Assembly: GCA_023898505.1 (NCBI GenBank)
Contig: CP060226.1
Coordinates: forward strand, 538,152 to 570,151
From: Candidatus Peribacteria bacterium
GTDB taxonomy: Bacteria; Patescibacteriota; Gracilibacteria; BD1-5; UBA6164
Direction of reading: 5' to 3'
Length of the DNA stretch: 32,000 nucleotides
Shown: one piece after another, positions 611 through 32,000 of the stretch
How positions within the stretch are numbered: the first letter of the stretch is position 1
Layout of the letters: each line of letters opens with the position of its first letter
Translations under genes and position numbers: made by a program
Notes under the pieces: generated by a model
What the model saw: only the letters and a program-made list of their open reading frames with translations
Told to the model about the DNA's origin: nothing
The model's database searches: none

Positions 611-692
611 CTTTACCATAACTTTTTAAAACCCTTTTAAACTACATACCATTACTTTAAGGCTGACTTGAAAGCCAAGTTGAATAATATTA

Positions 693-727
693 AGACTGTA
701 ATTACAAAACAAAACAGTCTTTTTTTA
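693..727 (+). terminator. Rho-independent terminator
   Basis: The stem agactgt (693-699) pairs with acagtct (714-720) and is followed by a T-run at 721-727. Confidence 0.55.
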
Positions 728-756
728 TTCTGCATAAATTCAAAAGACAAAATAAA

Positions 757-1404: not shown

Positions 1405-1462
1405 AAAAACATTATACAAAATAGTATTCTTGTGAATTTCTTTTCTTACAAGGAGTTTATTA

Positions 1463-2716: not shown

Positions 2717-2722
2717 ATCTAT

Positions 2723-2782
2723 TAGAACTCTTAGAACATAGAACAATTAAACCTCATAGCTAAAGGATGTTCTAGTGTTCTA
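2723..2782. promoter_or_regulatory. Cluster of TAGAAC iterons (three direct and two inverted copies); candidate operator or origin
   Basis: TAGAAC occurs at 2723-2728, 2732-2737 and 2739-2744. GTTCTA occurs at 2769-2774 and 2777-2782. The cluster lies in the gap between the helicase gene and the HTH module. Confidence 0.5.
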
Positions 2783-2867
2783 TACGTTCCCTTCAAAAAT
2801 AAGGAGTAATTAACCTTATTATTATATATCAAAAACTTAGTACTAAGTCATAATTAATAAAAAATTT

Positions 2868-3011
2868 ATGACAAAAAAAGATTATTCAAACGAATTAAAA
2901 TACTTAGATAAATATGAAGTTGATGAAGAAAAAAAGATAAGATTTATAGAAAACTTATACAAATTAATAAATATAAATTTCAATAATTTCATAGAAAATA
3001 ATTGACAATAA
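2868..3011 (+). CDS. Small hypothetical protein (47 aa)
   Basis: An ATG at 2868 opens a frame that runs to TAA at 3009-3011 with one in-frame TGA. I recognise no domain. Confidence 0.3.
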
Positions 3012-3060
3012 TTATTCTAAGATTATATTATTTATAATTAACAACTAATATATAAGTAAT

Positions 3061-3264
3061 ATGAGAGTAGAAATAAACCTTTGGGAGCTAATGGGTAAGA
3101 ATAAAATGACAGCTTTAGAGTTGTCTTCTCTTACCTGAATTTCTCCTATTCAAATTTCAAAAATTAAAAATTGAAAAACAACAAAAATAGAACTACAAAC
3201 CATAGCAAAACTTTTAGAAGCTTTTGAATGTAGTCCTAATGAATTAATAAAAATAATTAAATAA
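3061..3264 (+). CDS. XRE/Cro-like helix-turn-helix transcriptional regulator (67 aa)
   Basis: The translation MRVEINLWELMGKNKMTALELSSLTGISPIQISKIKNGKTTKIELQTIAKLLEAFECSPNELIKII matches a short HTH_XRE protein. TGA falls at plausible Gly positions. Confidence 0.75.
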
Positions 3265-3276
3265 CTTTCAAAAAAT

Positions 3277-4941: not shown

Positions 4942-5001
4942 GAGTCGAACCTAGCACGCAGGATTTGGAGTCCTGAATTATAGCCGATTAACTATGGGGC
5001 T
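4927..5001 (-). tRNA. trnW: tRNA-Trp (anticodon CCA)
   Basis: I folded the cloverleaf by hand. The acceptor stem is AGCCCCA/TGGGGCT, the anticodon arm is CAGGA-CTCCAAA-TCCTG, the T-arm is CTAGG-TTCGACT-CCTAG, the discriminator is G, and CCA is encoded. Confidence 0.85.
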
Positions 5002-7291: not shown

Positions 7292-8524
7292 TTATTTTTC
7301 TTCAGTTGAAGCTTCTTCTGTCTTTTTCTTTTTTGTTTCTTTCTTTGCTGCTGCTACTTCTTCATCAATCTTATCTTCTTGAGATTTTTCTTTCTTTACC
7401 TTTGGCTTTTCCTCTGCTGGCTTTTCTGGAGCTTCTTGAAGAGCTTTAAGTGAAAGACCGATTCTCTTTTTATCTGGTTCAAAGTTGATAATCTTTGCTT
7501 CTACTTCTTCTCCTACTTTCACAAAATCTCTGATATCCTTTACAACTCCGTGAGAAATCTCAGACAAGTGAATCAGTCCTTGAATCCCTCCTTCTAGATC
7601 CATAAAGGCACCAAATTGAGAAATTCTTGAAATTGGAGCTTTGATAGTATCACCAAGTTTGTATTTTCTTGCCAATACTTCCCATGGGTTTTCTTTGAGT
7701 CTCTTCATAGAAAGAGAAATTTTATCTCCTTCAAGTCCGATAACTTTTACTTTTACATTCATCCCCACTTTTGCAAATTTTGATGGATCATGTACATGTC
7801 CCCAATCGATCTCAGATACGTGAACAAGTCCTTCAAGACCATTAAAGGTAACGAAAAGACCGTATGACAAGATACCACTTACTACACCTTCTACGACATC
7901 ACCTTCTTTTAAAGTCTGAAGTGCCTTTTCTCTTGATTCTTCGATTGCAGCTTTTTCAGAGAAGATAATTTTCTTCCCAACTTCATCTACATTGATAACA
8001 CGAACCTTAAATGCTTCACCAACCAAACCTTGAAGGTGTTCAAGGATTTTTTCTGGGTCAGCTCCCTCAACTCTTGGATAGTGAAGAGGAGTCAGTTGTG
8101 AAACTGGGATAAACCCTTTCAGTCCATCGATATCCACAAGAAGACCTCATTTATTTGCTTCGGTTGGTCTCACAGTAATCACCTCAGAAGAATCAAAGTA
8201 TTTACTCAAGTTTGTCAGACTCTTAATCTGATTTGCTCTTTTCAGAGACAAGATAAGGAGTCCTCTATCAATACTATCACCAAGTACCATAACATCGATT
8301 GGCTGACCAGCAGCTAATTCTCCTAATTCAACAGTATTTCCAAGTTCTTTACTAACAACAATTCCAGTAAACTGATTGTTTACATTTACGAGAATATTTT
8401 TCTTCTCGATTTTGATGATGCTCCCAGAAATCACTTCCCCTTCTTTTGGGTACTTAATCTCCGGCGATGCTTTAAACAGCTCTTCAAACAGAGCCATATC
8501 ATCCTGTTTTTGTGCAACAGTCAT
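7292..8524 (-). CDS. rpsA: S1 RNA-binding domain protein (30S ribosomal protein S1-like, about 4 S1 domains)
   Basis: Track ORFs 8147-8524 and 7292-8137 share a frame and are joined by one TGA (8147-8149). This gives ...TEANKGGLLVDIDGLKGFIPVSQL, the conserved KGG of an S1 domain. Repeated GxVxxxxxxGxFV motifs are present. Confidence 0.9.
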
Positions 8525-8669
8525 GACGCAAGTGCGTTATAAAATAAAATAGTAAGTAAAAAAGAAGTTGCTAAAAAACTCGTTTTATAAGGCTTTTTGA
8601 GTTTTTTACTAAACATCTCTCAAGTAAAAAGTTTGTATGTATCAGAAACTTCCTACTTAAAAACGTTTA

Positions 8670-8724
8670 GGTATCCCTTTCTGTCCTCCGGACATCTTTC
8701 CCTTAAGCCTAAGGGCAAGAAATA
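8670..8724. repeat. Double-hairpin repeat, family C
   Basis: The sequence gtatccctttctgtcctccggacatctttcccttaagcctaagggcaagaaata nearly matches 27131-27186 and is related to 26559-26616. Confidence 0.8.
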
Positions 8725-8865
8725 ACATAAATTCTATCGTACGTTTACATTGCTCTTATTCATCGCAATGTAATTTTTCTTTCAGAAAAACCCTCCATTC
8801 AAATCCTAATAATTATTACTTCTTCTAGCTATTCACTTTTCTCTATTCACTATTCATCTAGATTA

Positions 8866-8943
8866 TGGGGTGTCCGATGGGATTTGAACCCACGACCTCC
8901 AGAGTCACAATCTGGCATTCTAACCAACTGAACTACGGACACC
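8866..8943 (-). tRNA. trnH: tRNA-His (anticodon GTG) with encoded G-1 and CCA
   Basis: The hand fold gives G(-1) GTGTCCG ... CCAGA-TTGTGAC-TCTGG ... GTGGG-TTCAAAT-CCCAT CGGACAC C CCA. Confidence 0.85.
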
Positions 8944-9027
8944 ATATACAACAAAATGTGCCTTCAAAATTGAAAGCACGAGGAGTATATAAAAAATAGA
9001 GGCGTTGTCAAAGCTTTTTTCGCTCTA

Positions 9028-9891
9028 TTAAAAGTAACTTCAAATGCATACGCACGTAATCACCAATAGCGTAATAATTATTTCCTTCATTCCGGGTTTT
9101 TCGTGAAGGAAGATATATGCAAACACAATATTTGCTACCAATGTAAGCATACCAAGAAGTGTTGCTTGGACGATACCAAATTCGGCTACTAATAAGAAGG
9201 ATATCAGATAGATTATAACCCGCAAAGAAGAGGCAAATAATAAAAATCTCCCAGCTTGTGCATTGAGAGTCCCTGCTTTTTTTGACTCTGCTCTAAAAAA
9301 CACCAATCAAAATAACAATACTATAGAAACAATACCGCTATATACAAGCGTATCTATAGGTAAAAGAGAAACAAGTATGTACGCTAAGATATTGTTTTGG
9401 ATCGCTGTTAATATACCTGCAGCAATCATAGCAATACACGGTCCGCTAAAACGAAAGTTTTTGAAATCAATACTCCCAAGAAATAAAATCACTCCTGCAA
9501 GCAGCGCAAAGATAAAAGTCGTGAGAGAAGATGAAGAAAAAACCAAAAATCAAATCAAAATAGTGATAATAGTTTCAAATTGAGCATACGGAGACAAAAC
9601 ACTAATTTTCTCTTTTTGATAAGCATACTGATATAGTAATCATCCAAATATACCAATAAAAGACTCTAGAAAAAATAATCATACCAACAAAAATGTGATT
9701 TCACCCTCAAATATTGAAACACCATATAACATCATACCAAATGCAAGTACTATAAGCACAAGAAAAAAGAGCATACTCCAAACATATTGAAACATCACTC
9801 AAGAAAATATTCTCTCTGTAATGACATTTGATTTTTTAAAGCTTACATCTGCTACTGAAGTCAGTAAAGCGGCAAGAATACCATATAGCAT
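9028..9891 (-). CDS. DMT/EamA-like integral membrane permease (287 aa)
   Basis: Track fragments 9040-9306 and 9307-9546 plus upstream pieces join in one frame through TGA codons. The protein is highly hydrophobic and multi-spanning, and it is paralogous to the next gene. The stop is TAA at 9028-9030. Confidence 0.7.
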
Positions 9892-9900
9892 ATATAAAAA

Positions 9901-10740
9901 TTAATATGTACCGAAAACAACACAAAAAAATACTCCGATTACCACTAGTACGTCTCTTTTCCTTGGAATATCAGAAAAGACAAGAAACGAAAGCAATAGA
10001 TTGAAGCCAAGATATAACATACCAACCAGAACCGCCTGAACAATCCCTAGTTCTTTTACTAAATATAAAGTAATAAATGTTGCAGCTAACCAAAATATAT
10101 TCTCAAAAAATATATGTACCGCCATTTTTGTTGTAAGTTTCTTAGCGTAGTAAAATTCTCTAAAAAATACTACTAACAGTACCATAAACAATAACGAGAC
10201 TCAGATAGTGTAGAATAAGGCTGAGAACGCTGAAACCATAAACAACAGATAGCCATATAAAATAAATTTAATTGCTGTCAGGAATCCTGAGAATGTAAAT
10301 GCTAAACAAAACTTATTAAACCCAAATTTTTGAAAATCAATCCCTCATCATATAAGCAATATACCTGCAAGACAAGCAAAAATAAAAGAACCTAAAGTAT
10401 TATTATCAAAAATCAAAAATCAAAACAACACCGTAAATACTGTTTCGAACTCGCCATACGGCGTCAAAATACTCAATTTTTCATTTCTAAATGCGTATTG
10501 CTCTAGAAATTCTGAAATGATGGAGAGAATACTTCCAAGAACTACTAGTCATAATCAGATAATAGGAATTATCTGAAGATCAAAAACTAACAAAGAAAAA
10601 ATTAAAACAGAAAACAATGAAATTAAAGCAACAAGTTGATAAAACCTATCGGATATTATATCCTCCGTAAGTATTAATGCTTTTTTATAAAACACATCTG
10701 ATAATGAAGAACATATTGCTCCTAAAATTCCGTATAACAT
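9901..10740 (-). CDS. DMT/EamA-like integral membrane permease (279 aa), tandem paralog
   Basis: Fragments 10555-10740 and 9901-10191 share a frame, and I checked that the intervening frame has only TGA. The sequence EKLSILTPYGEFETVFTVLF parallels EKISVLSPYAQFETIITILI in the neighbouring gene. Confidence 0.7.
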
Positions 10741-13942: not shown

Positions 13943-13969
13943 AGAAGCTCCGTACGGAGCTTCTTTTTT
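13943..13969. terminator. Bidirectional rho-independent terminator between convergent genes
   Basis: The stem agaagctccg / cggagcttct has a 2-nt loop (ta) and is followed by a T-run. Confidence 0.7.
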
Positions 13970-15434
13970 ATCGAACCATCACCCAGACAGATCCCCCCAC
14001 CCCTGACGAAATCCCATATGAAGATGCGAGATCTCCTTTTGCAAAACCATGTGTAGTATTGTTTTGATAATTGTTAGCCCAATAATTCCAACGACTCACT
14101 AGAGAATCACAGTTACCCGCTCTACAGCCATGTGCATCTGAAACTCTATATACTGCTATCTCTTCTGTAGAATTAATACAATCTGAGGTACCCAAATCTA
14201 TACCCCCATATGTACTGTCTCTTCGATTTGTAATCAATGACTCTTTATAGGTAGCATAATAAAACCAATACTTTCTTAACCCATTATCATAGGTGTAGTA
14301 GGCTTCATTCTGAATGCATGTTTGTGGAGATATTCAGGTAGACTCAAAAGCACGCGATTGAATAAATCAATTTGGCACAAAAAATCCATAGTACTTCGTT
14401 GTATCTCCATCTATCCCCATAGATACTTCTGTAAACATCAGTTCAGAGGCATCAAGTGAATAATCATATCCTGGGTTTAGGTTCGTAGGAGTATCTCCAA
14501 TAACTGCATCGAAGAAAGTAGCACTGGGATAACTACCATCTGTTACTCATATGAGCATCCAACCGCCTCAGTCTGTAGTCATATCACAGTATACGGAAGT
14601 TTCTGTACTTCCATCTGGGTAAATAGTGTATATATCGGACCCTAAGCTTTTTCCCGCATATAATATATCAAGACAACTTGTAGGATTACTCATATGTGCA
14701 GTGATGCTCAGTACATACAACGTACTTCAAGTTCCCACTGTACTTTTCACGTCTGTGAAATTTGCCGTATAGGTGTCTGTAGTAAGGGCTATGTCAAGGT
14801 AACCTGAGTTTGTTACCGTAGTTACCTCTTGTATCGGAGCATTGGTTCAGGACTGGGTGAGGATACCAAGCTTATGTCCATTTACCGTTGAGTATCTGTT
14901 TGTGTAGTCTGTCGCTGCATGGGCTTGTGGGATGAAAGCTCCCCCTAGCCATGATATCTCCTCACCCCAGCCCTCTCCTTTGAGAGGAGAGGGAGTTATA
15001 GTTCCCCCTTCTCCCACAAGGGAGAGGGGGCTAGGGGGTGAGGGTATTTGTGTAAGAAGGTTTTCCTCTTCTTCAAGAAATGCCATCAATTGGAAGTATT
15101 TCTTATCACTCGTGAGGTAGTAGGAAAAGTAGGTGGAGTCTTTTGGGTCTTTTCCTCCTTTGGTAAAGTCTATCGTTTCAAGAACTCCTTCTCCAGCATA
15201 GCCTTGGTAGGCAATAGTCGTTCCATTAGACTTTACTTCTACGTAGTCATCTGGAAGAGGGAGGTCTTTTTCTGTTCTATAGAGTTCAAGTCCATCATGG
15301 AGTGCCGTAAGTTGAGAGATACGATTCGTATCTCTCGTTCAAGCGAGGTAGGAGCTATATGAGACAAAGCCTACGGTAGAGAGGATACCGAGGATTACGA
15401 CGACTACGATAAGTTCGACTAATGTAAACGCCAG
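13968..15434 (-). CDS. Type IV pilin-like protein with a C-terminal fibrinogen-related domain (FReD); the start codon is uncertain
   Basis: The N-terminus AFTLVELIVVVVILGILSTVGFV is a class III signal/pilin helix. The C-terminal sequence SCLDILYAGKSLGSDIYTIYPDGSTETSVYCDMTTDGGGWMLI is the fibrinogen C-domain signature, with TGA at 14578-14580 as a Gly in DGGGW. No ATG, GTG or TTG lies upstream in frame, so I placed the 5' end at CTG 15432-15434. Confidence 0.75.
14941..15045. repeat. Family B nested palindromic element inside the pilin-like coding sequence
   Basis: ccccctagcc (14941-14950) pairs with ggctaggggg (15030-15039). Inner hairpins are ccctctcctttgagaggagaggg and cccccttctcccacaagggagaggggg. 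The element is related to the intergenic copy at 5073-5110. Confidence 0.85.
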
Positions 15435-15619: not shown

Positions 15620-18600
15620 TTATTTAAACGGATACTCTGCAAATGCCATATAAATAAATGTTCACCCGGACTCATTATGAGAAGTCCCTCTAAGTTTAAA
15701 TCCATTCGAAAGAAAATCAGCCCAGACAGCATATTGTTCAGCATTATCGGCACTTGCCATAAGGTAATCGCTGATAACATTATAAGGAGAACGCACCGAA
15801 TCTATCATTCACCACTGACTGGTAGAATCTACTCTTTTTGAAAGTATAAATTTCGGCTTAAACCCAGTATATACAAACGGACCATCAGTATTTCCATTTC
15901 CGGTATAACTTCCAAACTTTGAAAAACCAGGTTTTTCAGAAAAAAGATACGCAACGTGTTGTGCACCAACTACATTTGTTGCCGTTGAATCTCAAACTGT
16001 AAAAAAATCATTATCTGGAAGAGTATCATTCCAGTGATTAAAGGTAGAGGGGGTCAAGTCCTCTACATCATTTGTATCTAGAAGCAATCTATATTTTTCT
16101 GAACTAACTCAACCATTAAGATCTTGATGATATAATGGCCAATTACTTACAGAATCTCTATTTTTAATAATCATGACATCCGGTCTTGTTCATAAATTAT
16201 GCGGAATCTTCTTTCCTGCAACACCATCTCATATATACGCGACAATATCAAATCCTGAAGTAGCTGATTCTTTCCAATTCCAAGCCACATAAGTATTCGC
16301 AGCACTATTATAATCTTGTATGGATCCACTTAAAGTAAATCCATTAAAATCAAACGATGTAAAAAAACTAGGAGCCGAATATTCTGAGTCTGTAAGATTT
16401 GAACGTAATTCTTTATCTACTCCTCTGATAGAATCTCGTAACATGTGATCAGCACCAGTTACATCTCTGTTTTTAATCCACACCAAATCTGGCTGAAAGT
16501 TAAGGCCTGTAATATGATGATCTGTTAAGCCGTTTCATGCATAGGTAAGTACATCAAAGTATGCATTTGCATCTTCAATCACAGAAGCATATCCCGTTAC
16601 TAAATTATAGGCATAACTCTGAGGAATAAAATCTGAACTCCAACGAGCTATATCCTTTGAAATACGTATTTCATCCATATATCCATCAAAATAATCACTC
16701 CCTCCACCGTATTTCTTCCCAATAAAGATATCACTATTTAAGTCAGGAAGGATATTACTATCAATCGGAGTAATAGTACTCAGAGGTAAAGCAGAACCAT
16801 TTACATATATACTAAAACCTGTTCCAGACCTGACCGCTGCCACATGATACCACTCTCCTGTACTGAAATTATGCATAGCACTATACTCTGCCAGTATATT
16901 GGAACCACCATTTTTTGAAGTAAAATAGATATCTGTCGCATCCATAGAAATCGTGGTACGGAAGTTTGAGTTTGGACTATCATACATCTGTCCTATAAGT
17001 CCAGCAGAACCGAGACTATTAAAATATATCCAGAAGTCTATCGTAAAATCTCCATCAGCAAAATCCCAGTAAGCAGAGTCTGGTATTTGTAAATAATCAC
17101 CATTCCCATCAAATGCAATACTGGTTGTTCCAATTTTACGTTCATCAGTAGTATGATGTGTGTCGCCATATACCTGTATCGTATGTGCTGATCATGAGAT
17201 ATCTTGGATATCTGTGGATCCATCAGCAGTATTGGAGCGGATAAGAAGCGGGGTATTGGTGTCATAAACAGGAGTAGAATCTGGGAGATTTGAAGTAGAC
17301 AGAGCGGTGAAAGCTATTGGCGGTTCATATTTAAAATATCATCCCGCATTTTCATAATACGTAAGTCAAGATTGTCATCATTGTCAAAAGTTTGAGTTTA
17401 CACTTGAGTTTCGATAATGGTTTATAGCGAAAGTTCAAGATGCGTCTCCTGTCATCGAGATAATTGCCGTTGGATTTACCCCTTGAGAAGGGTTTCCATC
17501 AGTACTTCCGGGGGTGCTTCAAAACCAGACACTATTTTTTCAAAACCATACCTTTCAAGTACTAAAATCTGCTGCAATCATCACTGTATCCCCTACCTCA
17601 ATTTTTGGATATCCTCATACCCAAGACCCATTTTTATAAATTCTCCCATCAGCCGTACCATAGTAGTTTGCATATGAAGCTGATACAAGATTATTATCAC
17701 TATTATAGACTATAAACTCTGGTCTACTAAGCTCAGTAACAGTATCAAGAGAGACAATAGTATGTTCTGTATAATACTTCCCAGAGGCACCGATAGTTTG
17801 AATCGTACTCAAAAAAAATTCATCAGCAGAACTACTCGTATTTCCAATTTGTAAATTTCCATGACTAAAGTCAGAATACTGATACGGACGGAGACTATTC
17901 CAGACAGCAAAATTATTCTGAGGCGTATCAATCACTTGATCAGTACTATCAAGATTATTCGCAGAAAAGTGATGGGCATTTCCACTCGTATCTTTTCCTA
18001 AAATCGAACTATCCGAAAAATTCAGATGAAATCCGTTGGTTCCATAGGTTCCTGTGTATTCTTTTGGTATCCATTTACCATTAGATTGAGATTCTCAGAA
18101 ACTATCTGGAGTGAGTGCTTGTCCATCGATAAAGTATACTTCGGTCATATATCCATCTAAAAAATTCTCAATATTATGCCCCAATGTTTCTTCAAATGCT
18201 CACACATAATGGTTTTGTTGACTATTTATCCACGTTTCATAGTTTAGACTTGGATATGTTGATAATAACAAACCTGTTATTTCTTCTCCATTAACAAAGA
18301 TGGATACCGATGACGCTGTTGTATCAACGGAAATTTGTATATGGTACCAGCTACTTACATCACGAAATTTTGCAGTAGTCTGAATATCTATCTCATGTGC
18401 TCATCAATCATGGTCAGAAGCAAATCTTAGAGTATCATCACTCATAAAAGAGAAAAATGTTTTATTACTATTTCCTCATGACGTTGCAGAAAACAATGTT
18501 TGAGTTCTCTCAAGACCCGATCTTTTTACCCATCCGCTCCACGTCCACTTTCTTCTATCTCAATCCTGAGATGGGGTTCTAGATAAATATGTATCATCTG

Positions 18601-19474
18601 AACTATTAAATCTCAGAGAATTCGTAATTTCAAAAGCATTGCTCACCGTATCCAAGGAATCACTACTAAAGTCACAGGTCACTACCACTGCTCCTGTACC
18701 ACTTGGAAACACTGTAAACTCTCCTGTAGTCCCAGCAAGACTTGGTAGTACCTGCAGTAAATCATCACAATTCTCTACCGTCTTTCCTCCCTGCGATACC
18801 ATATTTGCAAGTGGCGCAAGATTAGTAGCATCTCCAGATATGGTCGTTTCTGGATCTATATGTCCGACAAAATTATCAGACGTAGTTCCAATATCTAGAC
18901 CTCACGAAGCAATAATTGCAGGTAACTCTTGAATTGGAGTATTACTCCCCGATTGTGTCAACACACCAAGAGAATCCCCGGTCACATACACATATCGTTC
19001 ACTATAATCAATATCGCTTGCATGAGCAATACCTCACCCTAGCCCACTCCTTAAGGAACTTGGAGTGATCATAGCATTCAGATATTCATCTGTTTCCAAA
19101 AAACCAAGAAGTTGGTAATACTTTCTATTTTCTCCTACATAATAGGTATAATAGGCATCATCTTGAGGATCCTTTCCGCCATCTGAAAATCAAATCGAAC
19201 CAAGCACTTGTTCGCCAGCATAGCCTTGATACCCAATCGTCGCCCCACTATAACTTACGGTTACATCATCATCGGGCATTGGAAGCAAACGCTGTACACG
19301 ATAGTCTTCTAGCCCTGATCGGATGTTTCATAATACGCTAATTCTATTACCATCTCGTGCTGAACTGATATACCCCGTATAGGTAATAAAAGAAATCCCC
19401 GCCAATATAATCAGTATGGTCGTCGCAACCAAAAGCTCCACCATCGTAAAGGCTCAAGCATTACGCAGTATCAT
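15620..19474 (-). CDS. Giant pilin-like surface protein (about 1284 aa) with LamG-like, SPRY and LamG-like domains plus a duplicated C-terminal module
   Basis: The N-terminus is MILRNAGAFTMVELLVATTILIILAGISF. The first roughly 120 aa are paralogous to gene 13968-15434. The SPRY signature is GKYYTEHTI...GDTVMIAADFSTGKVWFGKNS...NFGQGG...YFKYEPP. The LamG signature is GEWYHVAAVRSGTGFSIYVNG...FDGYMDEIRIS. All track fragments share one frame and are joined by TGA. An alternative ATG lies at 19537. Confidence 0.8.
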
Positions 19475-19479
19475 ACCCC

Positions 19480-19535
19480 TATCCCTCTCGTCCCTCGAGT
19501 ACTTTCCCCTTACAGGAGAAAGAGTTATATCTTTC
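19480..19535. repeat. Hairpin repeat in the 5' leader of the giant pilin-like gene
   Basis: The sequence ccctatccctctcgtccctcgagtactttccccttacaggagaaagag is related to families B and C. Confidence 0.55.
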
Positions 19536-19651
19536 ATATTCTTAAAGATATTGAATAAAACTAAATTTTACAAGATGAGACCCCGAATTCACCGAGATAT
19601 ACGAGTATGGAAATAACATCCCTCCTCCGTATACTTCTCCCCCTCATTTAT

Positions 19652-20713
19652 CTATGTACCTTTTCCCTTTTCCATTCTTCCCTTTCGTCTTTTCTCTTTT
19701 ATCTTTCATCTTTCATCTATTTCCAATTCTTTCACTACCTCTATCCACTCTTCAATTCCCAATTCTTCTCCCCTCACAGTATCCGAAATACTCAGTTTTT
19801 CAAATATCACTAGTATTTTCCCCTTGTCATATCCACTATTTAATAAGTTCTTCAGTAGCTTTTTTCTCGGTTCACGAAAACCCTGTTTAATAATTTCTAA
19901 AAATACTCCATCATCGATATCTCTATAATTATCATGAGTTATAAAGTGAAGAACGATAGATTCTACCTTTGGCGCAGGATAAAAGTGCTCTTTCGGCACA
20001 ACACAAACTTCCCTCACAAAACACTTTTTTGCGATAAAAAGTCAGAGGACTGAAGAGCGTATTTTTTTATCACTTCTGTGTCATCCCGTACTTGATACGG
20101 GATGATAATTTGTACCTTTACATTTTCATGATTCTGAAACAAGTTCAGAATGACAAATAGATCTCTGTCAGCTTAAAATTTTCCTCCCCACATCCTCCTG
20201 CATCATAATCGCCATCTCTTGAGGAGATGTAGAAACTTCATAGAGAAAGTGCCTAAGAATCGGAGAAGTGATATAATACGGGATATTTGCGATGACTGAG
20301 TAATTAATTTGTCATTCTGAACTTGATTCAGAATCATTAATAGTATCTTTACTCTTTCATAGATTCCTGCCTCCGCAGGAATGACATACGTGAAATATCG
20401 GTTCATACTTAAGGACATCGATATGCTCGATGTTAACATTCAGTCCTTCAATTTGCAATTCTCCTGTCTGTATTCTCTGCTCAAGGATGGTGATCATATC
20501 TGGATCAAGCTCCACGAGAGTCAAAGATTGTGGTATTTGCGTCAGGAGTTTTTCGGTGAGTGCCCCATACCCTGGACCTACTTCCACGATATTTTTTCCA
20601 TCTACCTCAATAGCTGTTGCAATATTTTCTAGACTTCCTTCATCTACAAGAAAATTTTGTCCCAAAGATTTTTTTGCGTGGAGTTTATATTTTTGTATAC
20701 TTTGTGGAAGCAT
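19652..20713 (-). CDS. rsmA: 16S rRNA (adenine1518/1519-N6)-dimethyltransferase RsmA/KsgA, with two in-frame repeat insertions
   Basis: Supporting motifs are KKSLGQNFLVD, VEVGPGYGALTEKL, ANIPYYITSPIL and FYPAPKVESIVL. I chose the ATG at 20711-20713. The frame reads through several TGA to TAG at 19652-19654. Confidence 0.88.
20079..20155. repeat. Family A double-hairpin element inside the rsmA coding sequence
   Basis: The sequence tgtcatcccgtacttgatacgggatgataatttgtacctttacattttcatgattctgaaacaagttcagaatgaca is near-identical in its arms to the lepA copy. Confidence 0.85.
20310..20386. repeat. Family A variant double-hairpin element inside the rsmA coding sequence
   Basis: The sequence is tgtcattctgaacttgattcagaatcattaatagtatctttactctttcatagattcctgcctccgcaggaatgaca. 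Confidence 0.8.
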
Positions 20714-20765
20714 AATGTGGGAGTTATATTTCCTTTCGTTATATATCTTTTTAGTAAAAAAACAA

Positions 20766-23700
20766 ATGCAATTGATTCCAGATCTTACTCTCTGAAAAAA
20801 ATGGTGACTACGATTTTTGAGCGTACTCATTATCCTAGTATCACTCTGACAGTCGGCTTTTGCCCTCACTACAAGCACCAATTATGCAGGAACGGCAAAT
20901 GATCTCTTGGATAACAGTTTTCTATGGGTAACCCCTTCAAATGCCACAGGTGATACAACAGGGACCTCAGCTAGCAATACCATTACTACGAGAAATACCA
21001 ATGGAAATACGCTTGCGCTTACGACTTTCGGATTTACCTCTGGAGATATACCAAGTGGAGCAACAATTGAGGGGATACAAGCAGAAGTAGAGTGGCTCAG
21101 TAGTAACAACCGTATGCAGGATCAGGTAGTACAATTAACAAAAGACGGAACCACAGGGGTCGGAAGTAACTATGCAAATAACACTGGTCTTACCACTAAA
21201 TGATTCACGACATACGGAGGAACGACCGATCTTTGGGGAACCACCTGGACTCCAAGTGACCTTAGCTCTTGAAGCTTCTGAATCCTCCTCCAGTATAGAA
21301 ATAGAAGAAACTCAGCACAAACAGTAAATATTTATAGAGTACGCATCACTGTAAGCTACTCGATTCCAAGTGGTCCTGGGGGTGTTACGGGTAATGTATC
21401 CATATGGCTCAAGGCAAATGAAGGAACCAGCACAACCACGGATGGAAATGCTCTTTCTACCTGGTCTGACCAATCAGGAAATGGGTATGATGCCACAGGA
21501 GGATGAGCAACCAGACCAAGGTTTCGTGATAATACTACTGATAACATCAACTACCATCCAGTTGTCGACTTTAATGGAACCTCTCAATATTTACAAAATC
21601 TGGCAAATGGAGCCAGTTCAGAAAGTGCATTTATCGTCCTCAAACCAGTAAATGGGGTAAATGGGACTGCTTCGTACTGAGTCCCTTTCGGTTGGGATTG
21701 TCTCTCTGGAAACCTCAGTACTGGAACCTGCGGACTCAGCTTTGCAGGAATTACTCTTGGAGCCTTTACCGCAGCAATACCAGATGAAGTAGTAACCCTA
21801 GCACTCGGTTCATCAACCAACTGGAGATCCTCACAAACATGACTTGCATCGTATGATATTGGTGAAACGATGCTTCTTGTTTCAAACACAAATGCGGGTA
21901 ATACCGCAACTGATATCTATGAAAAAGGACAGCTCGTGAGTAATTACTCCGTCAACACCTTTCAGACACTTGCAACCGCTGATTATAATATCGGGCGTTC
22001 ACCAGATGCAGCAAATCCATTTTACTACGGAGGAACTATTGCTGAAATTATAAACTTTAGTTCACGAGTGACAGATAGCGAAAGACAACAGATAGAATCC
22101 TACCTCGCACTGAAATATGGAATCACGCTCAATGCTGGATGAACCGACTATATCGCCTCCGATGGAACCACGACTATATGGTCCACAAGCACGGCGGGGA
22201 GCTATACAAATAGTATCTTTGGTATTGGACGTGATGATAGCTCAGAACTCGGACAGATCACCTCAAAGTCCATGAATCCAGATGGGATCGTCACTGTGGT
22301 GGCTGTCGGAGAAGGAACTAATGCTACGCCAGCATTTGTAGACATAAGCGATAAAGAGTTTCTTACAATTTCTGACAACCTCTGAGGAAATAGTTGGGTC
22401 GCTACCGATAGCCCCCTTGGATATGATATCCTCGATAGAAAGTGGTTGTACCAAGAACAAGGAGATGTCGGAGCAATAACCCTTGATATCGATGTAGACG
22501 ATGCTGATTTCGATATACCCGTGCTTAATTCATGAGTGAATTATTTTTATATCTATGATAGTAATGGGAATGGAAGTCTCTCAGATGAGGTCCCTCAAGT
22601 GATGGTAAACACCAGTGGAAGTATCTGGGAAATGGCAAGCCTCAGTGTCACCAGCGGACGTATCTTTACCTTTGCTACCCTTTCATCGAGTAACAACATC
22701 CCGACAGATATTAGCATATCGAGTACAAGTACCAATGAAAATGTTGCGTCTGGAAGTCTTATAGGAACATTTACCACTACTGATCTTGATATTACTGATA
22801 CCCATACCTATAGTTTCGTTGCGGGTACATGAGATGACGACAATACCCTCTTTACCATAAGCGGAAGTGAACTTCATATTGCTGAGTCTCCAGACTATGA
22901 ACTCAACACTAGCTACTCTATCCGCGTGGAAACCGATGATGGAAATGGAGGGACTTTTCAGAAATCATTTACTATCTCGGTAAATAACCTCGGCGAAACT
23001 ATTACCACCATCATCGATTTTGAAGTCTCTGGAAAATATAGTGTGACATCAGGAACTTGGAATCGAAATACTAATAATCCTCAAGAATCAAGCTTTGCGC
23101 TTGAAAGTGACAATGGTTGAGGAGCAAATACTCAGTCCTGTTTTGAAGTCACCCATAACACGAGCGTCACGGGAAGTATCGACTTTTATTATGCCGTCGA
23201 TTCACAGGCATGAGGAGATACCCTAAATTTTTATATAGATGATGTAGAAGATACAAATTGGTCAGGAAATATTGCCTATACAAACTATACTGTCTCAGAT
23301 ATTGCGGGAGGACCTCATACCTATAAATGGTGTTATATCAAAAATGGAAGTGTGAATACTGGTCTAGATGCTGCTTGGATCGATTATATCGTATTTACCA
23401 ATGCGGCGAGTGATAGCACCCCACCAACTATATCAGTAACAGCTCCATGAAGTGGTTCACTCCTCCCAAATGCAGATTTTACTCTAGATTTGAGCTATAG
23501 CGACGCCGAATCATGAGTGAATACTGGGAGCATATCAGTAGTACTCAGAAAGTGGAATGGGAGTTCCTATGGAGTTGATATTGCTCCAACCTATGTAAAT
23601 TTTGGTGGTGCTACGATCGGCGCTTCTACAGCATCATACCCAGTTACAAAAATGGGCTATGGGAGATATATATTTGAAGTGAGTATCAATGACAATAGTA

Positions 23701-24137
23701 GTAACAACGGAACAGGAGCTTCCCTACTCTATCTTGATGAACCTGAAATCATTATCTCAACAGGAGCTATCGATATCGGGTTTCTTGATGCAAATGGAGT
23801 AAGTTTTAGTAGTCAAGAGTTAACTATTACCGTGAATACTGTTTGAGCTGCCTATGATCTTGTCCTCGTCAATGAGAACCTCCTGAGCTACTCTGGTACG
23901 ACGATTTTGGATTGGGATGGAAGTACTGGATATGGATATGAACAAAGCCCCTATACCCTCACCGTCACGCCGATAGGAACTGGGGCAATCCTTGTCTCTG
24001 AACCAGCAAATCTCAACGTCGATGGAAATAGAAATACCAATATTTACTCGATACAGCTTTGATGACAAGTAGATGAGCAGCAAGCCGCTGGAGACTATAC
24101 CGGAAATATACAGTTTTTGCTTGATGTAGATTATTAA
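20766..24137 (+). CDS. Large secreted surface protein (1123 aa) with LamG/ConA-like and cadherin-like domains
   Basis: The ATG at 20766 gives a signal-peptide-like N-terminus LRFLSVLIILVSLGQSAFA. The LamG end motif is FYYGGTIAEIINFSSRVTDSERQQIESYLALKYGITLN. The cadherin-like repeat is PTDISISSTSTNENVASGSLIGTFTTTD...YSIRVETDDGNGGTFQKSFTISVNN. Five track fragments share one frame. Confidence 0.8.
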
Positions 24138-26656: not shown

Positions 26657-27121
26657 ATGGCAAAAGAAATTAAAGGGTATATCAAACTTCAGATTAACGG
26701 AGGTCAAGCAAACCCAGCTCCTCCAGTAGGTCCAGCCCTTGGACAATACGGAGTACCAATCCAAGACTTTACCAGTCAATTCAACGAAAGAACAAAAGAT
26801 AGGATGGGAGTAAAACTTCCAGTAGTGATTACTGTATACGATGACAGAAGTTTTGAGTTTATCGTAAAACAGCCACCTGCAGGAGTACTCATCAAAAGTA
26901 AACTGAATCTAAAAAGTGGTTCAAAAGTTCCTCATAAAGATAAAGTAGGACACCTTTCAGTTGAACAATTAAAAGAAATCGCAACAGAAAAGATGCCAGA
27001 CTTAAATGCGGTAGATCTTGCTGGTGCAATGAAGATTATTCAAGGAACTGCAAGAGCTTCAGGAGTTACGACTGATATAGATGGTCTAACAAAGAAAGAA
27101 GTGATTGAAAAACTTGGGTAA
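26657..27121 (+). CDS. rplK: 50S ribosomal protein L11
   Basis: The sequence [25 protein letters not shown] is canonical L11. There is no in-frame TGA. Confidence 0.95.
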
Positions 27122-27130
27122 TATCAAAAA

Positions 27131-27186
27131 TATCCCTTTCTGGTCTCTCGACCATCTTTCCCTTACCTCTAAGGGAAAGAGTAATG
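27131..27186. repeat. Family C double-hairpin repeat
   Basis: The sequence tatccctttctggtctctcgaccatctttcccttacctctaagggaaagagtaatg is a near copy of 8670-8724. Confidence 0.8.
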
Positions 27187-27220
27187 TAGCATCATCTTCG
27201 GGCTTAACCCCCGAAGATTT

Positions 27221-27295
27221 GCTCCCATCGTCTAGCGGTTAGGACGCTGCCCTCTCACGGCGGAAACAGGAGTTCGATTCTCCTTGGGAGTACCA
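27221..27295 (+). tRNA. trnE: tRNA-Glu (anticodon CTC)
   Basis: The hand fold gives acceptor GCTCCCA/TGGGAGT (G1-U72), D-arm GTCT-AGCGGTTA-GGAC, anticodon arm CTGCC-CTCTCAC-GGCGG and T-arm AGGAG-TTCGATT-CTCCT, with an encoded ACCA end. Confidence 0.85.
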
Positions 27296-27296
27296 T

Positions 27297-27348
27297 AAAA
27301 ATCTCTTGTGAGTAAAATCTATTTGATTTTATTTGCGAGAGATTTTTA
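27297..27348. terminator. Long hairpin, likely a bidirectional terminator
   Basis: aaaaatctct...agagattttt encloses agtaaaatc/gattttat. Confidence 0.55.
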
Positions 27349-27416
27349 AATTGTAAGTTCCAGGAGATGAGAAACTGAGGCACTTAATAATTCTCTCGAG
27401 GCAAGTATATGGAAAA

Positions 27417-28367
27417 TTACAAGATTAAATTCTCATTTGTAAACCATTGATTTCAAATTTTCTTCGCTATAATCTTTCCTCTGTTTACCAATTGTCTTCC
27501 ATAATCTTCTTTAAACCCTTTTTGGACCATCAGGTCAGCTACTGGTACAAGCTCATAAGATTTATAATGAGATAAAATCAAATAATCCAAACTTTCAAAT
27601 AAATTTCACGATATAGTTTTCTCCAAACTACTGAAATCTCATTTATTTACCCAGTCATCTTTTGGTATATTTAGTGGAAAATAGTCATATAATCCTATTT
27701 CTCATTTTTCCAATCAAGTAAAATATCTTTCTTTTTCTGATTCTACTCACTTAATAATTATATTTGGATATCAATGACAAAGTAATACGTAGTTTATAAG
27801 TACCCTTCATACTCTTCCGTTCCCATCCTCAAATGGATGTATAGATTCAAATAATACATGCAGTTTAGATAAAGAAGAAACTATATTGTCTTCTGTAAAG
27901 TCAAGAATATTTACATATGATATGAAATAATCTAAGCAAAGCAAAACCATACTTCATACAGGAGGTTTAATTCTTACTTTGTTAATCATAATATCTCATA
28001 GCCTATAGTCTCACGGTTTTTTCGATTCTTGTCATCTAAACATCAGAGAATGAATGGTTTTTATATCTGAGTGTTTTAACTCAAACTTTTCCTTGTTTAT
28101 ATATTTTTGGTATCCAAACTCATAGACTAATGAGGCAGAATCAAAATACCCTAGAATTTCCTCTGAGTTTTTAGAATATTTTTTATTTGAAATAGTATTT
28201 TGTATTTCTTTTTTATTTGCAAAGTACCCCTCTATCATAATAGAGTTCCTCGTTTCCTCTTCAAATAGGTACAACCATTCTTTATTCTTTACATTTGGCT
28301 TTGTAAGTGATCAAAACTTCGATAATAATTCTAATCTCCACTTAATAAGTTTTCAAATATTTTTCAT
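27417..28367 (-). CDS. Fic-domain protein (AMPylase family), class II with an N-terminal inhibitory motif
   Basis: The Fic motif HPFEDGNGRVGR lies at 27804-27839, with TGA as Gly. SIMIEG at 28227-28244 fits (S/T)xxxE(G/N). The frame runs from ATG at 28365-28367 to TAA at 27417-27419. Confidence 0.85.
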
Positions 28368-28379
28368 AATTCTAATTTT

Positions 28380-28595
28380 TTATAGATTAAACTCTGTCAT
28401 TTTTCAGTCAACTAATTCATAACATATGTAATTTTCGGGATCTCAGCTATAACCTAAGTGTTCAAATTCTTTTGTTTCTCTTAATCTTTGAAATGCATCC
28501 TCAGGGTTTTCTCATTCTATAATTGCTAATCAACTAGTAGAATCTAAATTCTCAAACTTTTCAGCATAATAAGTTAAAAATATATATTTTTTCAT
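28380..28595 (-). CDS. Small hypothetical protein (71 aa)
   Basis: The frame is open from ATG to TAA with four in-frame TGA, and it ends 12 nt upstream of the Fic start. I recognise no domain. Confidence 0.5.
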
Positions 28596-28621
28596 GGTAT
28601 TTTAGTTAAAATTTAAAGTTT

Positions 28622-29050
28622 TTATAAATAATTGCCAACCCAACTGGCATAATCTTCTATAAGTTGGTGATTTTCTGATTCTTTATCAATAGCCTTAAGC
28701 CGACTTAGTCAAATAGTAAACTTTCTTCTATCTCCTTTTCTTCTTACTTTCACAAATAATTCACTCTCATAATATAAGAGCTCATCAAACTCGATAAAAC
28801 TGAAAGTATCAGTATATGATGGCCTTGTTTTCTTTAACTTCTCATATTCTTCTGGATCTCAATATCAAAAAACATATTTTTCTTCCCAATCAAAGTCATC
28901 TCTTCAAGTAAGTAAACAAGGTTTTTCTATGTTATTAGTTATGTATTTTAGATACTTTTGTAAATTCCCTTTATTTACTCAAATATCTTTTTCCTCTTGC
29001 TTTCACAATATTTTTTTAAATCTTTCTATTTCTTTTTCAAATTCATCCAT
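28622..29050 (-). CDS. Hypothetical protein (142 aa)
   Basis: The translation, verified codon by codon, is MDEFEKEIERFKK...ASWVGNYL. An AGGAGG lies upstream of the start. I recognise no domain. Confidence 0.6.
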
Positions 29051-29077
29051 AATAATTCTAGTTAAAAAATAAAATAA

Positions 29078-31243
29078 TTACCTCCTTATAATCTTATACC
29101 TTCAAGATTTCTCTAACTTGTTATAAAAAGTCTGCCTTTTCTTGAATAACTTATCAAAATAATCTATATTTTTATCATGATAGTCATATATAACTTGTTT
29201 TTTCTTAGTCCTTTGGATTCTTCATATATATTGAATCAATTTTCACTCAAAAGAAAAAGGATAAACTAAAAACAAACAATCTAGCTCTCATATATCAAGT
29301 CACTCTCAAATTAACTGTCATGTAGATATAAGAACCTGAAAGTTTCATGATTTTATTTGCTGAAATTTTAGTTTTCTTTTTCAAATACCATCATCTCAAG
29401 TCAGAGTAATTGTTTCATGCTGATTTTTTAAATACATATTTATAAGCATAACATGGTCTTTTCTCTCAGTAAGAACAATTATTTTACGATTTTTTCAGAT
29501 TTCTTTGATTAAATCTTCTACAATCATAGTATTTCTATCAGTATCGTATACGAGAACTTTTGAAACCATTTCATAATTATCTATTTTATAATCAAATGGA
29601 ACAAAAAGGTTTGTTTCTTTGATATTTATATGATTTTTGATTGAACTTACTTTTTTAAAATCTCTATCAATAGTAGATATTATATCTCAAATATAACAAT
29701 ATATTAATTTTTCATCATTGTTTTTTCTCTTTGGAGTAGCTGTAAAACCATAAATATACTTAGAATTGAAGTTAACGACTGCTTCACGAAAGGTTTTCGC
29801 AGGTATATGATGGCATTCATCTATTATAATAAGTCCAAATTTATTCTTTATTTCACTCAAATCATCTTTTTTTACTATAGTCTGCATCATAGCTATTGTA
29901 ATTCAAGACTTTCAAACCTTATATTTTCAATTTCAAACCTGTCATATATCTTTTTTTATAATTCAAAGGAATGACTCTATTCTCTCAATCCATTGGTCAT
30001 ATAATTCTCTACGATGTACAATAATAAGAGCAGGTTGTTTTTTCCTTGCTATAAATTCAAGTCACATCACTGTTTTACCAGCTCAAGGAGGTGCTACAAT
30101 TATTCATGAATCCTCTTGTTCTATTTCTAAAAGTACTTTTTCTTGGTAATCATATAAATCAATGCTTGAACTATATTCTATTTCTTCAAATGTATTCCTA
30201 TAATCCTTGATAGTATATGTGGTATTATTTTTCTTTAAAAAGTCTTCTAACTGCTTCAAAAATCATATAGGAATAGCAATGTCTAAATCACTTTCATCAA
30301 TAACTTTGAAATACTTTTCAGTTTTATAGGTACTTTTTCATAATCTTTTCTTTACTAAATAGTCAGAATTAAAAAAATTTAAACTATCTTTTAAAAATTT
30401 TATAAGATTCGGTGTAAGATTTTCTCTTTTTATGATGATCTGGTTACGAATAATAATTTCAAATCAATTTATATTGTTACTTATTATAGGTGTTTCTATA
30501 TTTTTATCATCACATACTAAGACAGAATAAATCTCATCTAATTCTTTAACTGAAATTTTCTCTATGTTCTCTAAAAATTCCCACTGATTTTCTATAACAG
30601 AAGCATCTAATACATTTATAAAACAAGAATTATCTTGTTTTAGTGATTCTCACTGAAAAGGTAGAGCAATAAGATTACCAAATCATTTTCAGGTTAGATA
30701 ATCTTGATTTGGGAATAATCTATCAAAACTAAATTCTTTTTCAAAAATACTTACATTTAAAGATTTTTTAAGTAATTCAAAAAGTATTTTTCTACTTTTT
30801 ATGGCAGGATATTTACTTTCAAAGAATATCCATACATGTCATCCATTTCAAGAACGACTTCTTTCTATATAAGTAGGTATATCATAAACTTCACAAACCT
30901 TAATGAGATTCTTGCATTCCTCTAACCAATTTTTCTTATCAAAATCAGCAACTATAAAATTTGAGTTATTATTAGCTAAAAGTGGATAGATTCATAATGT
31001 TTTACCTCAAAGTAAATGACTGTATATTGCTTTATCTGTAAGAGCTAATAAAGTTTTATTCTCAAAATTACTAATATTTCATCATTTAGCTCTATGAGCT
31101 GAAAATTCATTCCAGTCAAAATCATAAGCTGGCATATATCCACTGTTTCAGTTTTTCTCCCAACGAATAGCATATATATCCTCTCTTCATAGAAAAAGAG
31201 ATCTGTATAGTTTAATTTTCTCTTTGGATATAAAATCAGGCAT
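29078..31243 (-). CDS. Fusion protein with an N-terminal AEP/prim-pol-like domain and a C-terminal SF2 DEAH-box helicase (721 aa)
   Basis: AEP-like motifs are IVADFD, SRSGNGGHVWIFF and FDRLFP...GNLIALPF. Helicase motifs are IIVAPPGAGKT, IIIDECHH, FTATP, ISTGQLIGEGLDIGELDCLFL and QYIGRIQR. Many of the motif Gly residues are TGA codons. Confidence 0.85.
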
Positions 31244-31572
31244 AGAAAAATATAGTTAAAAAACTGTCACGATTATACTATCTTATTAAAACGTGACAAA
31301 CTTATTTTTTAGATTTTTCACAAAAAAATAACCAACTTTTTTATATAATTTTGTTGGAAATACGCTACAAAATAAAGTCCTACTACATGCAAATGAGGTA
31401 GGTTTTTTATTTTTTAAGTTATTATTACGGAGAATCGAATGGAGAAAAGGAACTGAAACGAAAGTATGAAATATCACGATGAGTAAGAGTGATGTGAATC
31501 ACTGGAGTCAGTTATCTTTTGGATGCCCGACTTGCGGCAATTCTCCTTCTGGAGTAACAAAAGTAATCATCC

Positions 31573-31608
31573 AAAAAAGGAAGTATATAAAAATATACTT
31601 CCTTTTTT
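31573..31608. terminator. Bidirectional rho-independent terminator
   Basis: The 12-bp stem aaggaagtatat / atatacttcctt is flanked by an A-run and a T-run, just downstream of the minus-strand gene that ends at 31619. Confidence 0.7.
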
Positions 31609-31618
31609 GATTTTATAT

Positions 31619-32000
31619 CTACTCACCACCCTTCTTCAAGACCTTCTTTGAAAAATATCACTTCAACTCACTAAATACCTTTGCAAAGAGTGAACTCGTA
31701 GGCGCAGAGATAATTCACATGCGATAATCTGTCGGTTCATCTGTATACTCACTACACTCTAGAAAGATTTTGTTGGTACATCCTTGGCAACGAGACATAC
31801 TGAGCTTATGCATATAGATGTATGGAATAGCCTCGGATAAATGATCAAAGATATGTTCTTTCCCAATTTGAGCAATAAATCCTCCTCGAGAAAGTTCCAC
31901 AAGTACTTTGGTTTTTAGTCCGACAAAATAGAGCCCTCCCGCGAGCTTTCCGAGACGTTCGTTTTCTTTTTCAAGCATCTCCATACCACTCATATCGATA
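31619..32000 (-). CDS. C-terminal STAS-like end of a SulP-type anion transporter (5' end outside the window)
   Basis: The sequence MSGMEMLEKENERLGKLAGGLYFVGLKTKVLVELSRGGFIAQIGKEHIFDHLSEAI resembles a STAS domain. The frame reads through two TGA to TAG at 31619-31621. Confidence 0.55.

Follow-up and report, generated by a model that had tools for sequence, protein, structure and literature searches.

The closest described counterpart of the locus considered here is the IS-excision enhancer (IEE) of Escherichia coli O157:H7 (Z1568/ECs1305; WP_000233452.1), a protein of 786 amino acids (aa) in which a 'Z1568-like' archaeo-eukaryotic primase (AEP) domain is fused to a superfamily 2 (SF2) DEAH helicase (PMC9943667). 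IEE is a Mn2+-dependent, error-prone DNA polymerase, its ATPase is DNA-dependent and works without unwinding DNA, and the protein joins 3' overhangs via microhomologies of at least 4 bp, a reaction for which both domains are needed; it co-occurs with IS3-family (IS629-like) transposases (94.75% in E. coli; PMC9943667). Here we examine a 32-kb stretch of DNA (contig CP060226.1; 'the window'), in which four co-directional minus-strand genes at 27417-31243, labelled g29, g28, g27 and g26 in their reading order, form a small islet. The lead gene, g29, encodes a full-length member of the IEE family. The reading that we favour, and hold to be rather probable, is of an IEE-family end-joining polymerase/ATPase with modular, lineage-specific passengers, the locus being one instance of IEE genes that sit by silenced toxin-type genes.

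The lead gene and the IEE family

On Pfam, g29 matches AEP-TOTE (PF22548, 1.4e-81), ResIII (4.6e-31) and Helicase_C (3.1e-10), the first of these with 273.9 bits, against a cut-off of 27, and over profile positions 1-229 of 230. E. coli IEE has the same PF22548, ResIII and Helicase_C architecture, scoring 329 bits (1.7e-98) on the AEP-TOTE model, and in BLASTP the two proteins are colinear over g29 residues 6-719 (E=1e-119, 31% identity, 51% positives). The polymerase triad of IEE (D142, D144 and D216) corresponds to D100, D102 and D174 of g29, motif B (H178) to H136, Walker A (K451) to K390 and the arginine finger (R735) to R675/R678, and these residues of g29 are invariant in 24 homologues. 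Because the Pfam architecture is the same, colinearity extends over the full length and all of the catalytic residues studied in IEE are conserved, we assign g29 to this known and biochemically characterised family, as a full-length member whose catalytic residues are intact; IEE biochemistry would thus be the best available prediction of g29 activity. The IEE protein that we retrieved, from EDL933, is 786 aa long, in agreement with the published length, and lies on an island that starts with an integrase beside ycdU.

Both genes are found on horizontally acquired DNA by a tRNA-type integration site. They differ in that g29 is 65 aa shorter, without the first ~45 residues of IEE, that it carries 35 TGA codons read as glycine, and that no IS element or transposase lies nearby; E. 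coli IEE is flanked by integrase, AlpA, YfjI and inovirus Gp2 genes and, unlike g29, has no Fic gene beside it. The co-occurrence with IS3-family transposases was not seen at g29, none being present among the scanned genes of the window (a scope of 32 kb, not of the genome).

More than 7,500 homologues of g29 were found at E<1e-10, typically ~712 aa in length, and identity is 55-58% even to those of Bacteroidota, Chlorobi and other candidate phyla radiation (CPR) bacteria. The ~712-aa clade to which g29 itself belongs (Bacteroidota, Patescibacteria, Ignavibacteriota and others; 46-58% identity over 97-100% of the length) goes by the NCBI names 'TOTE conflict system AEP domain-containing protein' or 'DEAD/DEAH box helicase', and shares with g29 the habit of keeping a toxin-type neighbour; the downstream set of g28, g27 and Fic, unlike in the window, occurs in none of the 80 members surveyed. 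Among solved structures, the helicases nearest to g29 are archaeal XPB proteins (XPBII 6P4F, 4e-24), and the nearest AEP domain is that of the CRISPR-associated primase-polymerase CAPP (7NQD/7NQF, ~1e-14; 7NQD 8e-15), which lacks a fused SF2 helicase. The PADLOC model 'PrimPol, CAS-associated' is also matched (4e-61).

An earlier reading of the window, made from its letters only (hereafter the sequence-only reading), had identified a fusion of AEP and SF2 helicase, which the Pfam matches bear out, and had rightly stated that Pfam names an AEP family after TOTE (PF22548, AEP-TOTE). The motifs that it quoted (VADFD, SGNGGHVW and FDRLFP) are present and family-invariant, as are GAGKT and DECHH (alignment A1). 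What it had missed is that the fusion belongs to a known family, that of the E. coli IS-excision enhancer. A gene carrying the TOTE name is hereby refiled into a family with measured polymerase, ATPase and end-joining activities, which gives an enzyme of an uncultivated, TGA-recoded bacterium a concrete and testable biochemical prediction. Novelty is low for g29, as a member of a known family, and modest for the comparative pattern of neighbours set out below; we found no published description of this IEE–toxin neighbour pattern, the primary description of TOTE lying outside that comparison.

Genetic code, companion genes and the islet

Under translation table 11, the region 27417-31243 holds no minus-strand open reading frame (ORF) of more than 80 aa. 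Once TGA is counted as sense, the long-ORF total of the window triples (from 18 kb to 56 kb), and with TGA as glycine (code 25) the four genes appear, separated by 27, 26 and 12 nt. In an alignment with 21 standard-code homologues, 22 of the 35 TGA positions of g29 fall in invariant-glycine columns; the cells aligned to its TGA codons hold G in 551 of 735 cases and W in none, and TGG pairs with W. The TGA codons of g28 likewise match the glycines of 'VFGYGD' in standard-code homologues. TGA, these alignments show, encodes glycine, and the host is therefore a code-25 bacterium of the Gracilibacteria/Absconditabacteria type. The sequence-only reading had proposed both the recoding and four co-directional genes with gaps of 12-27 nt, and on both counts it was right. 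We regard all four genes as real, because g29, g26 and g28 have Pfam matches, and g27 has conserved homologues and coding-type substitutions. With 59 in-frame TGA=Gly codons, the operon is an example of accessory genes readable only inside code-25 hosts.

As a side observation, the public predicted proteins P0121-P0124, P0137-P0143, P0145, P0148-P0151 and P0154 were translated with TGA as tryptophan, such that W replaces the glycine expected from standard-code homologues and from the codon analysis (e.g. 'VFWYWD' for 'VFGYGD'); mistranslation of this kind in public code-25 proteins could mislead both family models and structure prediction.

The second gene, g28, matches Pfam CcbP (PF11535) with 27.5 bits against a cut-off of 21.5. 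Its fold was taken from a model of a 52%-identical homologue, P0125 (predicted local distance difference test (pLDDT) 93.6), for which Foldseek returned the Anabaena CcbP structures 3URG and 2P0P (template modelling scores 0.54-0.64, probability 1.0); a helical N-terminal part and an SH3-like barrel are predicted, and on the strength of the Pfam match and this model g28 is CcbP-like. Sequence identity to Anabaena CcbP, with which it has the Pfam family and fold in common, is ~14%, and calcium binding by g28 is putative; a sequence search of the PDB with g28 gave matches at chance level only. Its genomic context is unlike that of CcbP, in that it adjoins IEE or SEC-C proteins, and our literature search turned up nothing useful on CcbP in defence contexts. 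In Myxococcota and other genomes, relatives of g28 are found behind SEC-C proteins as well, and one recurs after an IEE homologue in a Saccharibacterium, beside a second CcbP gene.

Two of these settings deserve a note of their own. In a Myxococcota contig of 121,892 bp (L084) and in L088-L091, g28-family genes come after a gene for a ~495-aa protein with a SEC-C motif, and are themselves followed by genes for either a 630-aa unknown protein or DUF6880 proteins; the L084 locus is inside a dense defence island with XPB and DUF790 (Bax1-like), Fic-like_C, RhuM, DUF499 and SNF2 helicase genes. In the Saccharibacteria locus (L045, 3250-6388), the two CcbP-family genes after the IEE homologue, of 159 aa (PF11535, 6.6e-37) and 138 aa (the g28 homologue), have 11 nt in common, a sign that their translation may be coupled.

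The third gene, g27, has no family match in any library, and the model predicted for its family (pLDDT 57) is too poor for a fold search. A profile search of 1.84 billion representatives gave 13 clusters, of which 12 consist of small proteins of 29-96 aa and the thirteenth is a weak, repetitive match within a 670-aa protein (E=2.9e-5). Seven of the eight retrieved family sequences have W at TGA/Gly positions, the signature of a TGA-recoded origin, and substitutions between g27 and its relatives are rarest at codon position 2 (2-9) and peak at position 3 (20-34), a pattern that looks like that of coding sequence. No g27 relative from outside the code-25 lineages was found among the small ORFs beside the 80 homologues. 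The gene is so far an orphan of TGA-recoded relatives, in which five different gene orders place it directly after the IEE gene. The sequence-only reading had given an 'unknown fold' to both small proteins; for the 142-aa g28 that label was wrong.

Lastly, g26 is matched by Pfam Fic (6.2e-15) and has the Fic active-site motif HPFEDGNGRVGR (residues 177-188, nt 27804-27839), which fits HxFx(D/E)GNGRxxR, so that its earlier identification as Fic is confirmed. In class II Fic proteins, the chain that bears the Fic motif also has an inhibitory motif, (S/T)xxxE(G/N), in its N-terminal part. A motif of this kind, SIMIEG, precedes the Fic motif of g26 (residues 42-47, nt 28227-28244), and g26 is therefore a class II, self-inhibited Fic AMPylase, with the same two signatures, canonical HPFx(D/E)GNGRxxR and N-terminal (S/T)xxxE(G/N), as SoFic and other class II enzymes. 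Its PADLOC matches are SoFic (8.6e-26) and PDC-S04, the former over model positions 42-220 of 361 (half of the model), and its PDB matches are Fic/FICD (~1e-9) and SoFic (~3e-5). We considered orthology to SoFic and rejected it, given 28.9 bits on the NCBIfam equivalog against a cut-off of 550, and the partial model match.

Turning to transcription, a strong promoter-like TTGTCA-16-TATAAT scores highest of such sites in the region, with 11 of 12 positions matching; it follows the perfect 17-bp hairpin by which the STAS-domain gene upstream is terminated. The hairpin that follows the Fic gene is likely to be a bidirectional terminator, and no strong internal terminator was found within the four-gene unit. 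The promoter and terminator being consensus matches only, we infer that the genes would be co-transcribed, from a single promoter, as a 3.9-kb unit. Bounded by tRNA-Glu and the STAS-domain gene, the islet is compositionally foreign: its GC content is 0.25-0.28 against 0.35-0.44 in the central window (5-27 kb), and 74% of its glycine codons are TGA, against 17% in core genes, all of which supports the earlier description of an 'island'. We found no convincing attachment repeats in a repeat search of the region, and no integrase or partition genes in the islet. An island-free allele was not found either; a search with the identical L11 led to the same operon or to a contig ending 150 nt after L11.

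One short match was noted at the far edge of the islet, where the reverse complement of 31411-31439 contains an 11-nt exact match (TTCGATTCTCC) to the T-arm/3' half of tRNA-Glu (27273-27301), followed by an A-run. This copy is inverted and could be a tRNA remnant or a chance match; at 11 nt, and inverted, we judged it insufficient as evidence of an integration site.

Table 1. Positions of the islet's genes, domains and signals, and gene orders at loci of code-25 relatives.
Locus	Feature	Position	Strand	Remarks
Window	g29	29078-31243	-	721 aa, 35 TGA codons; assigned to IEE-family AEP + SF2 fusions
Window	AEP domain PF22548 'Z1568-like'	30533-31222	-	g29 residues 8-237; D100, D102, H136, D174
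Window	XPB-like SF2 helicase/ATPase core	29207-30163	-	g29 residues 361-679; K390, DECH 475-478, R675/R678
Window	g28	28622-29050	-	142 aa; predicted CcbP fold
Window	g27	28380-28595	-	71 aa; orphan protein
Window	g26	27417-28367	-	316 aa; class II Fic protein
Window	Promoter-like site TTGTCA-16 nt-TATAAT	31272-31299	-	28 nt before g29 ATG; consensus match only
Window	Long hairpin with A and T runs on its sides	27300-27344		between Fic stop codon and tRNA-Glu
Window	tRNA-Glu(CTC)	27221-27295	+	low-coordinate edge of islet
L095, L096	IEE-g28-g27-HTH_26-HsdM			
L097-L099	IEE-DUF6155-g27-HTH_26			
L003	AAA_14/DUF4143-IEE-g27-727 aa			
L092	IEE-g28, then convergent gene			
L093	AAA_14/DUF4143, 170-aa DUF6155-like gene, g27 homologue	8170-10243		no IEE; 1.0-Mb genome, ERZ25074195

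Neighbours of IEE homologues and the readings weighed

The order IEE-g28-g27-Fic is found only in 95%-identical strains. In relatives at 73-82% identity, Fic is replaced by HTH_26 and HsdM or by another gene, and the 142-aa gene is swapped or dropped (Table 1), which does away with the idea of the four-gene combination as a conserved system. Of the four genes, Fic is conserved least, and g27 is the most faithful companion of IEE, though not strictly dependent on it; the arrangement at L093 suggests that DUF6155 and g27 can persist as a pair of their own. We also asked whether g28 and DUF6155, which occupy the same slot, are relatives, and rejected this (hhalign probability 0.15%).

Looking further afield, we took 80 species-representative loci of IEE homologues, clustered their neighbours and ran a Pfam census, with a control within each locus, comparing the immediately adjacent slots (140) with all other flank slots within ±10 kb (703). 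Fic genes fill 7 of the 140 adjacent slots and 3 of the 703 others (Fisher p=2e-4), HATPase_c_4 genes 12 and 3 (p=8e-8), and AbiEii genes 6 and 6 (p=0.007), respectively; adjacent copies of these partners share the strand of the IEE homologue without exception, and the seven adjacent Fic genes each occupy position -1. The adjacent-slot pattern exceeds general co-residence in islands. By family clustering, HATPase_c_4/Schlafen genes are present at 14 loci, AbiEii at six and AbiEi at four, the Pfam census adding four further AbiEii proteins; RhuM and HipA are found at three loci each and AAA_14-DUF4143 at one. Fic is near nine of the 80 homologues (seven immediately upstream), contrary to a picture in which the fusion would never be met beside Fic. 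Altogether, 34 of the 80 loci have a toxin-antitoxin or abortive-infection type gene in the same-strand run (Fic, Schlafen/HATPase_c_4, AbiEi/AbiEii, HipA, RhuM or AAA_14-DUF4143). A type I HsdR gene lies upstream in three loci, and a Gabija-like OLD and UvrD pair in one.

The last of these, in Chryseobacterium sp. SC28 (L038, 5942-12109), comprises two same-strand genes directly upstream of the IEE homologue; the 716-aa product has a P-loop N-terminus that is OLD/AAA_15-like by eye, the 627-aa product is a UvrD-like helicase, and the resemblance to Gabija is drawn from aggregate Pfam counts and sequence reading, not from per-protein tables. On an A. baumannii plasmid (NZ_CP038501.1; L101, 6138-9277), a HigB toxin and a regulator are directly upstream, on the same strand, of an 802-aa IEE homologue, with a HipA toxin module and a SEC-C protein nearby.

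Synthesising these findings, we propose how the products of the locus might work. If g29 works as its homologue in E. coli does, its ATPase domain would grip duplex DNA without classical unwinding, and the AEP domain, with Mn2+, would pair two 3' overhangs via a few bases of microhomology and then extend them, the overall outcome being the processing of breaks by microhomology-mediated end joining; in E. coli the same activity serves to remove insertion sequences after cutting by transposase. We suggest that g28, g27 and Fic are co-transcribed, modular passengers as opposed to obligate partners, and that IEE genes act as anchors across bacteria, of which the window presents one lineage-specific version.

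Several points weigh against this proposal. At 31% identity to IEE there is room for functional divergence, g29 activity being deduced from homology, and in a window that has no transposase or IS the excision role known from E. coli may not apply. The 80 loci are not phylogenetically independent, and the Fisher p-values are therefore optimistic. Tight spacing and a single promoter would equally fit an integrated system. Moreover, a Fic orthogroup of ~350 aa is found directly upstream of IEE homologues across four lineages (in Chitinophaga, three Saccharibacteria, another Patescibacterium and a Gracilibacterium), beside IEE proteins that are only 42-52% identical between lineages; a pair retained in this way looks more like real coupling than loose modularity.

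These last two points also speak for an integrated, multi-component defence system, in which the AEP-helicase would sense or process invader DNA and release the self-inhibited Fic AMPylase for growth arrest, with the small proteins as adaptors or regulators. We think this unlikely, even though a class II Fic needs activation, at least four Fic subfamilies are found by IEE homologues, Fic is enriched in the adjacent slot, g26 matches SoFic and PDC-S04 in PADLOC, and in Thermus the uptake of DNA is limited by an AEP of a mobile element that has a helicase beside it (PMC7693054). Fic is present at only nine of the 80 loci, and relatives at 73-82% identity do without it and swap the small genes. 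A same-strand gene within 200 nt on either side was not found by our neighbour-walk at 15 of the 80 loci (at one of these, L067, the walk passed over a Fic gene 22 nt upstream), and E. coli IEE works without Fic. The Fic protein of the window also departs from the conserved pair in subfamily and position: it is encoded downstream of the IEE gene, the immediately adjacent Fic genes of other lineages being upstream and of other subfamilies; its identity to ten of the eleven IEE-neighbouring Fic proteins of other lineages is 23-28% (alignments of 181-223 residues), and to the eleventh (L015:7722) 40% in a 55-residue local match. Among the PADLOC defence models, g29 matches none but CRISPR-associated PrimPol and generic helicase models. 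The observation made by the sequence-only reading is thus borne out, and its interpretation in part: the gene structure and the identification of Fic stand, whereas the relatives do not support a fixed four-gene system.

Improbable, to our minds, is the opposite view, that there is no functional relationship at all, and that a stand-alone IEE-like repair factor and an independent toxin-type Fic share a transcript merely through having both landed in one small insertion hotspot by a tRNA gene. Gene content does turn over among close relatives, and both g28 and g27 occur without IEE too; as at type I restriction-modification loci, toxin-type genes of these kinds generally turn up in defence islands in many different company. 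Against this, the partners concentrate in the adjacent same-strand slot and are not scattered over the ±10-kb flanks, and the Fic–IEE pair is kept across deep divergence of IEE.

A plasmid or integrated-element replication protein (a pRN1-type prim-pol and helicase) with a neighbouring origin, an option raised by the sequence-only reading, is highly improbable. AEP-helicase fusions do include known plasmid replicases (PMC11724360), homologues of g29 are present on 201 plasmid records, and the window has a separate mobile element with a serine recombinase at 1-4941. The helicase of g29, however, is XPB/Rad25-like SF2, not SF3, MCM or DnaB-like; the plasmid copies are on large plasmids and annotated as helicases, among IS or toxin-antitoxin genes in the two records inspected; and the full fusion is absent from all 50,697 phage genomes searched, the phage matches being to the helicase half only. 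There are no iterons or tandem repeats near g29, a search of 26900-32000 having given short two-copy matches only, and the islet is devoid of integrase and partition genes. IEE itself, furthermore, is a repair-type polymerase.

Scarcely credible, finally, is a canonical TOTE system with the AEP-helicase as its effector, a comparison touched on by the sequence-only reading, which has in its favour a Pfam family name in common with TOTE systems, and the NCBI protein name of some homologues, and which is contradicted at this locus, where the defining features of TOTE (TPR, OB, TBP, Effector; Aravind, Iyer et al. 2022, as cited in bioRxiv 10.1101/2025.09.15.676423) are lacking. As described in that citing source, TOTE systems have a TPR–cold-shock domain (CSD) fusion and a TBP gene; our Pfam scan gave no TPR protein, no cold-shock/OB protein and no fusion of the two in the operon or window, and no TBP match in the operon, window or neighbours of the 80 homologues, among which there was no TPR-OB either, the sole TPR belonging to a Ser/Thr kinase. 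The modelled fold of g28 is CcbP-like and not TBP-like, the g27-family model has the low pLDDT given above, and an effector domain of TOTE type in g29 is a match at the level of the name only (PF22548, TOTE AEP effector).

Returning to the IEE family with its modular passengers, we offer one further speculation, which we put forward tentatively and regard as doubtful: IEE-family primase-helicases may be the constant core of widespread, unrecognised two-part conflict modules, in which an end-processing enzyme is paired with, or guarded by, a silenced toxin. The toxin would be a class II Fic, AbiEii, HipA or Schlafen/HATPase_c_4 protein, in an arrangement that would resemble, by analogy, PrrC embedded in a type I restriction locus, and the window would be a code-25-locked variant adding a CcbP-fold protein and an orphan adaptor. 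Should the adjacent-slot toxin pattern survive a phylogeny-aware test, IEE would be recast from a curiosity of E. coli into a general component of genome conflict.

The rest of the window

Beyond the islet, the remaining window consists of housekeeping or surface-protein genes. No transposase, insertion sequence or further defence gene was found among the scanned genes of the window, nor CRISPR arrays or cas genes, and the islet is therefore an isolated one of four genes, outside any larger defence island. An Rfam scan of the window gave three tRNAs and nothing else.

A second island occupies 1-5001 on the plus strand (GC 0.21-0.26, TGA 82% of glycine codons), with genes for a DnaG-type CHC2 zinc-ribbon protein, a DUF5906/VapE-like P-loop protein, an HTH_26 regulator and a 554-aa large serine recombinase, the 3' end of which (4941) overlaps tRNA-Trp (4927-5001, minus strand). 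The island resembles a mobile element or satellite that has integrated and is truncated by the window edge. Across the whole window, the TGA share of glycine codons is 74-82% in the two islands against 17% in core genes, and the highly expressed core genes for EF-Ts, S2 and L11 have no TGA codons; adaptation to code 25 seems to have gone further in the accessory gene pool than in the core genome.

Two very large surface-type proteins are encoded at 15620-19537 (minus strand) and 20430-24137 (plus strand). One has a type IV pilin-like N-terminus with Laminin_G_3 and DUF7483, and the other a weak cadherin-like repeat, its counterpart at L001 being annotated DUF8202; a fibrinogen-C-like protein is encoded at 13968-15086.

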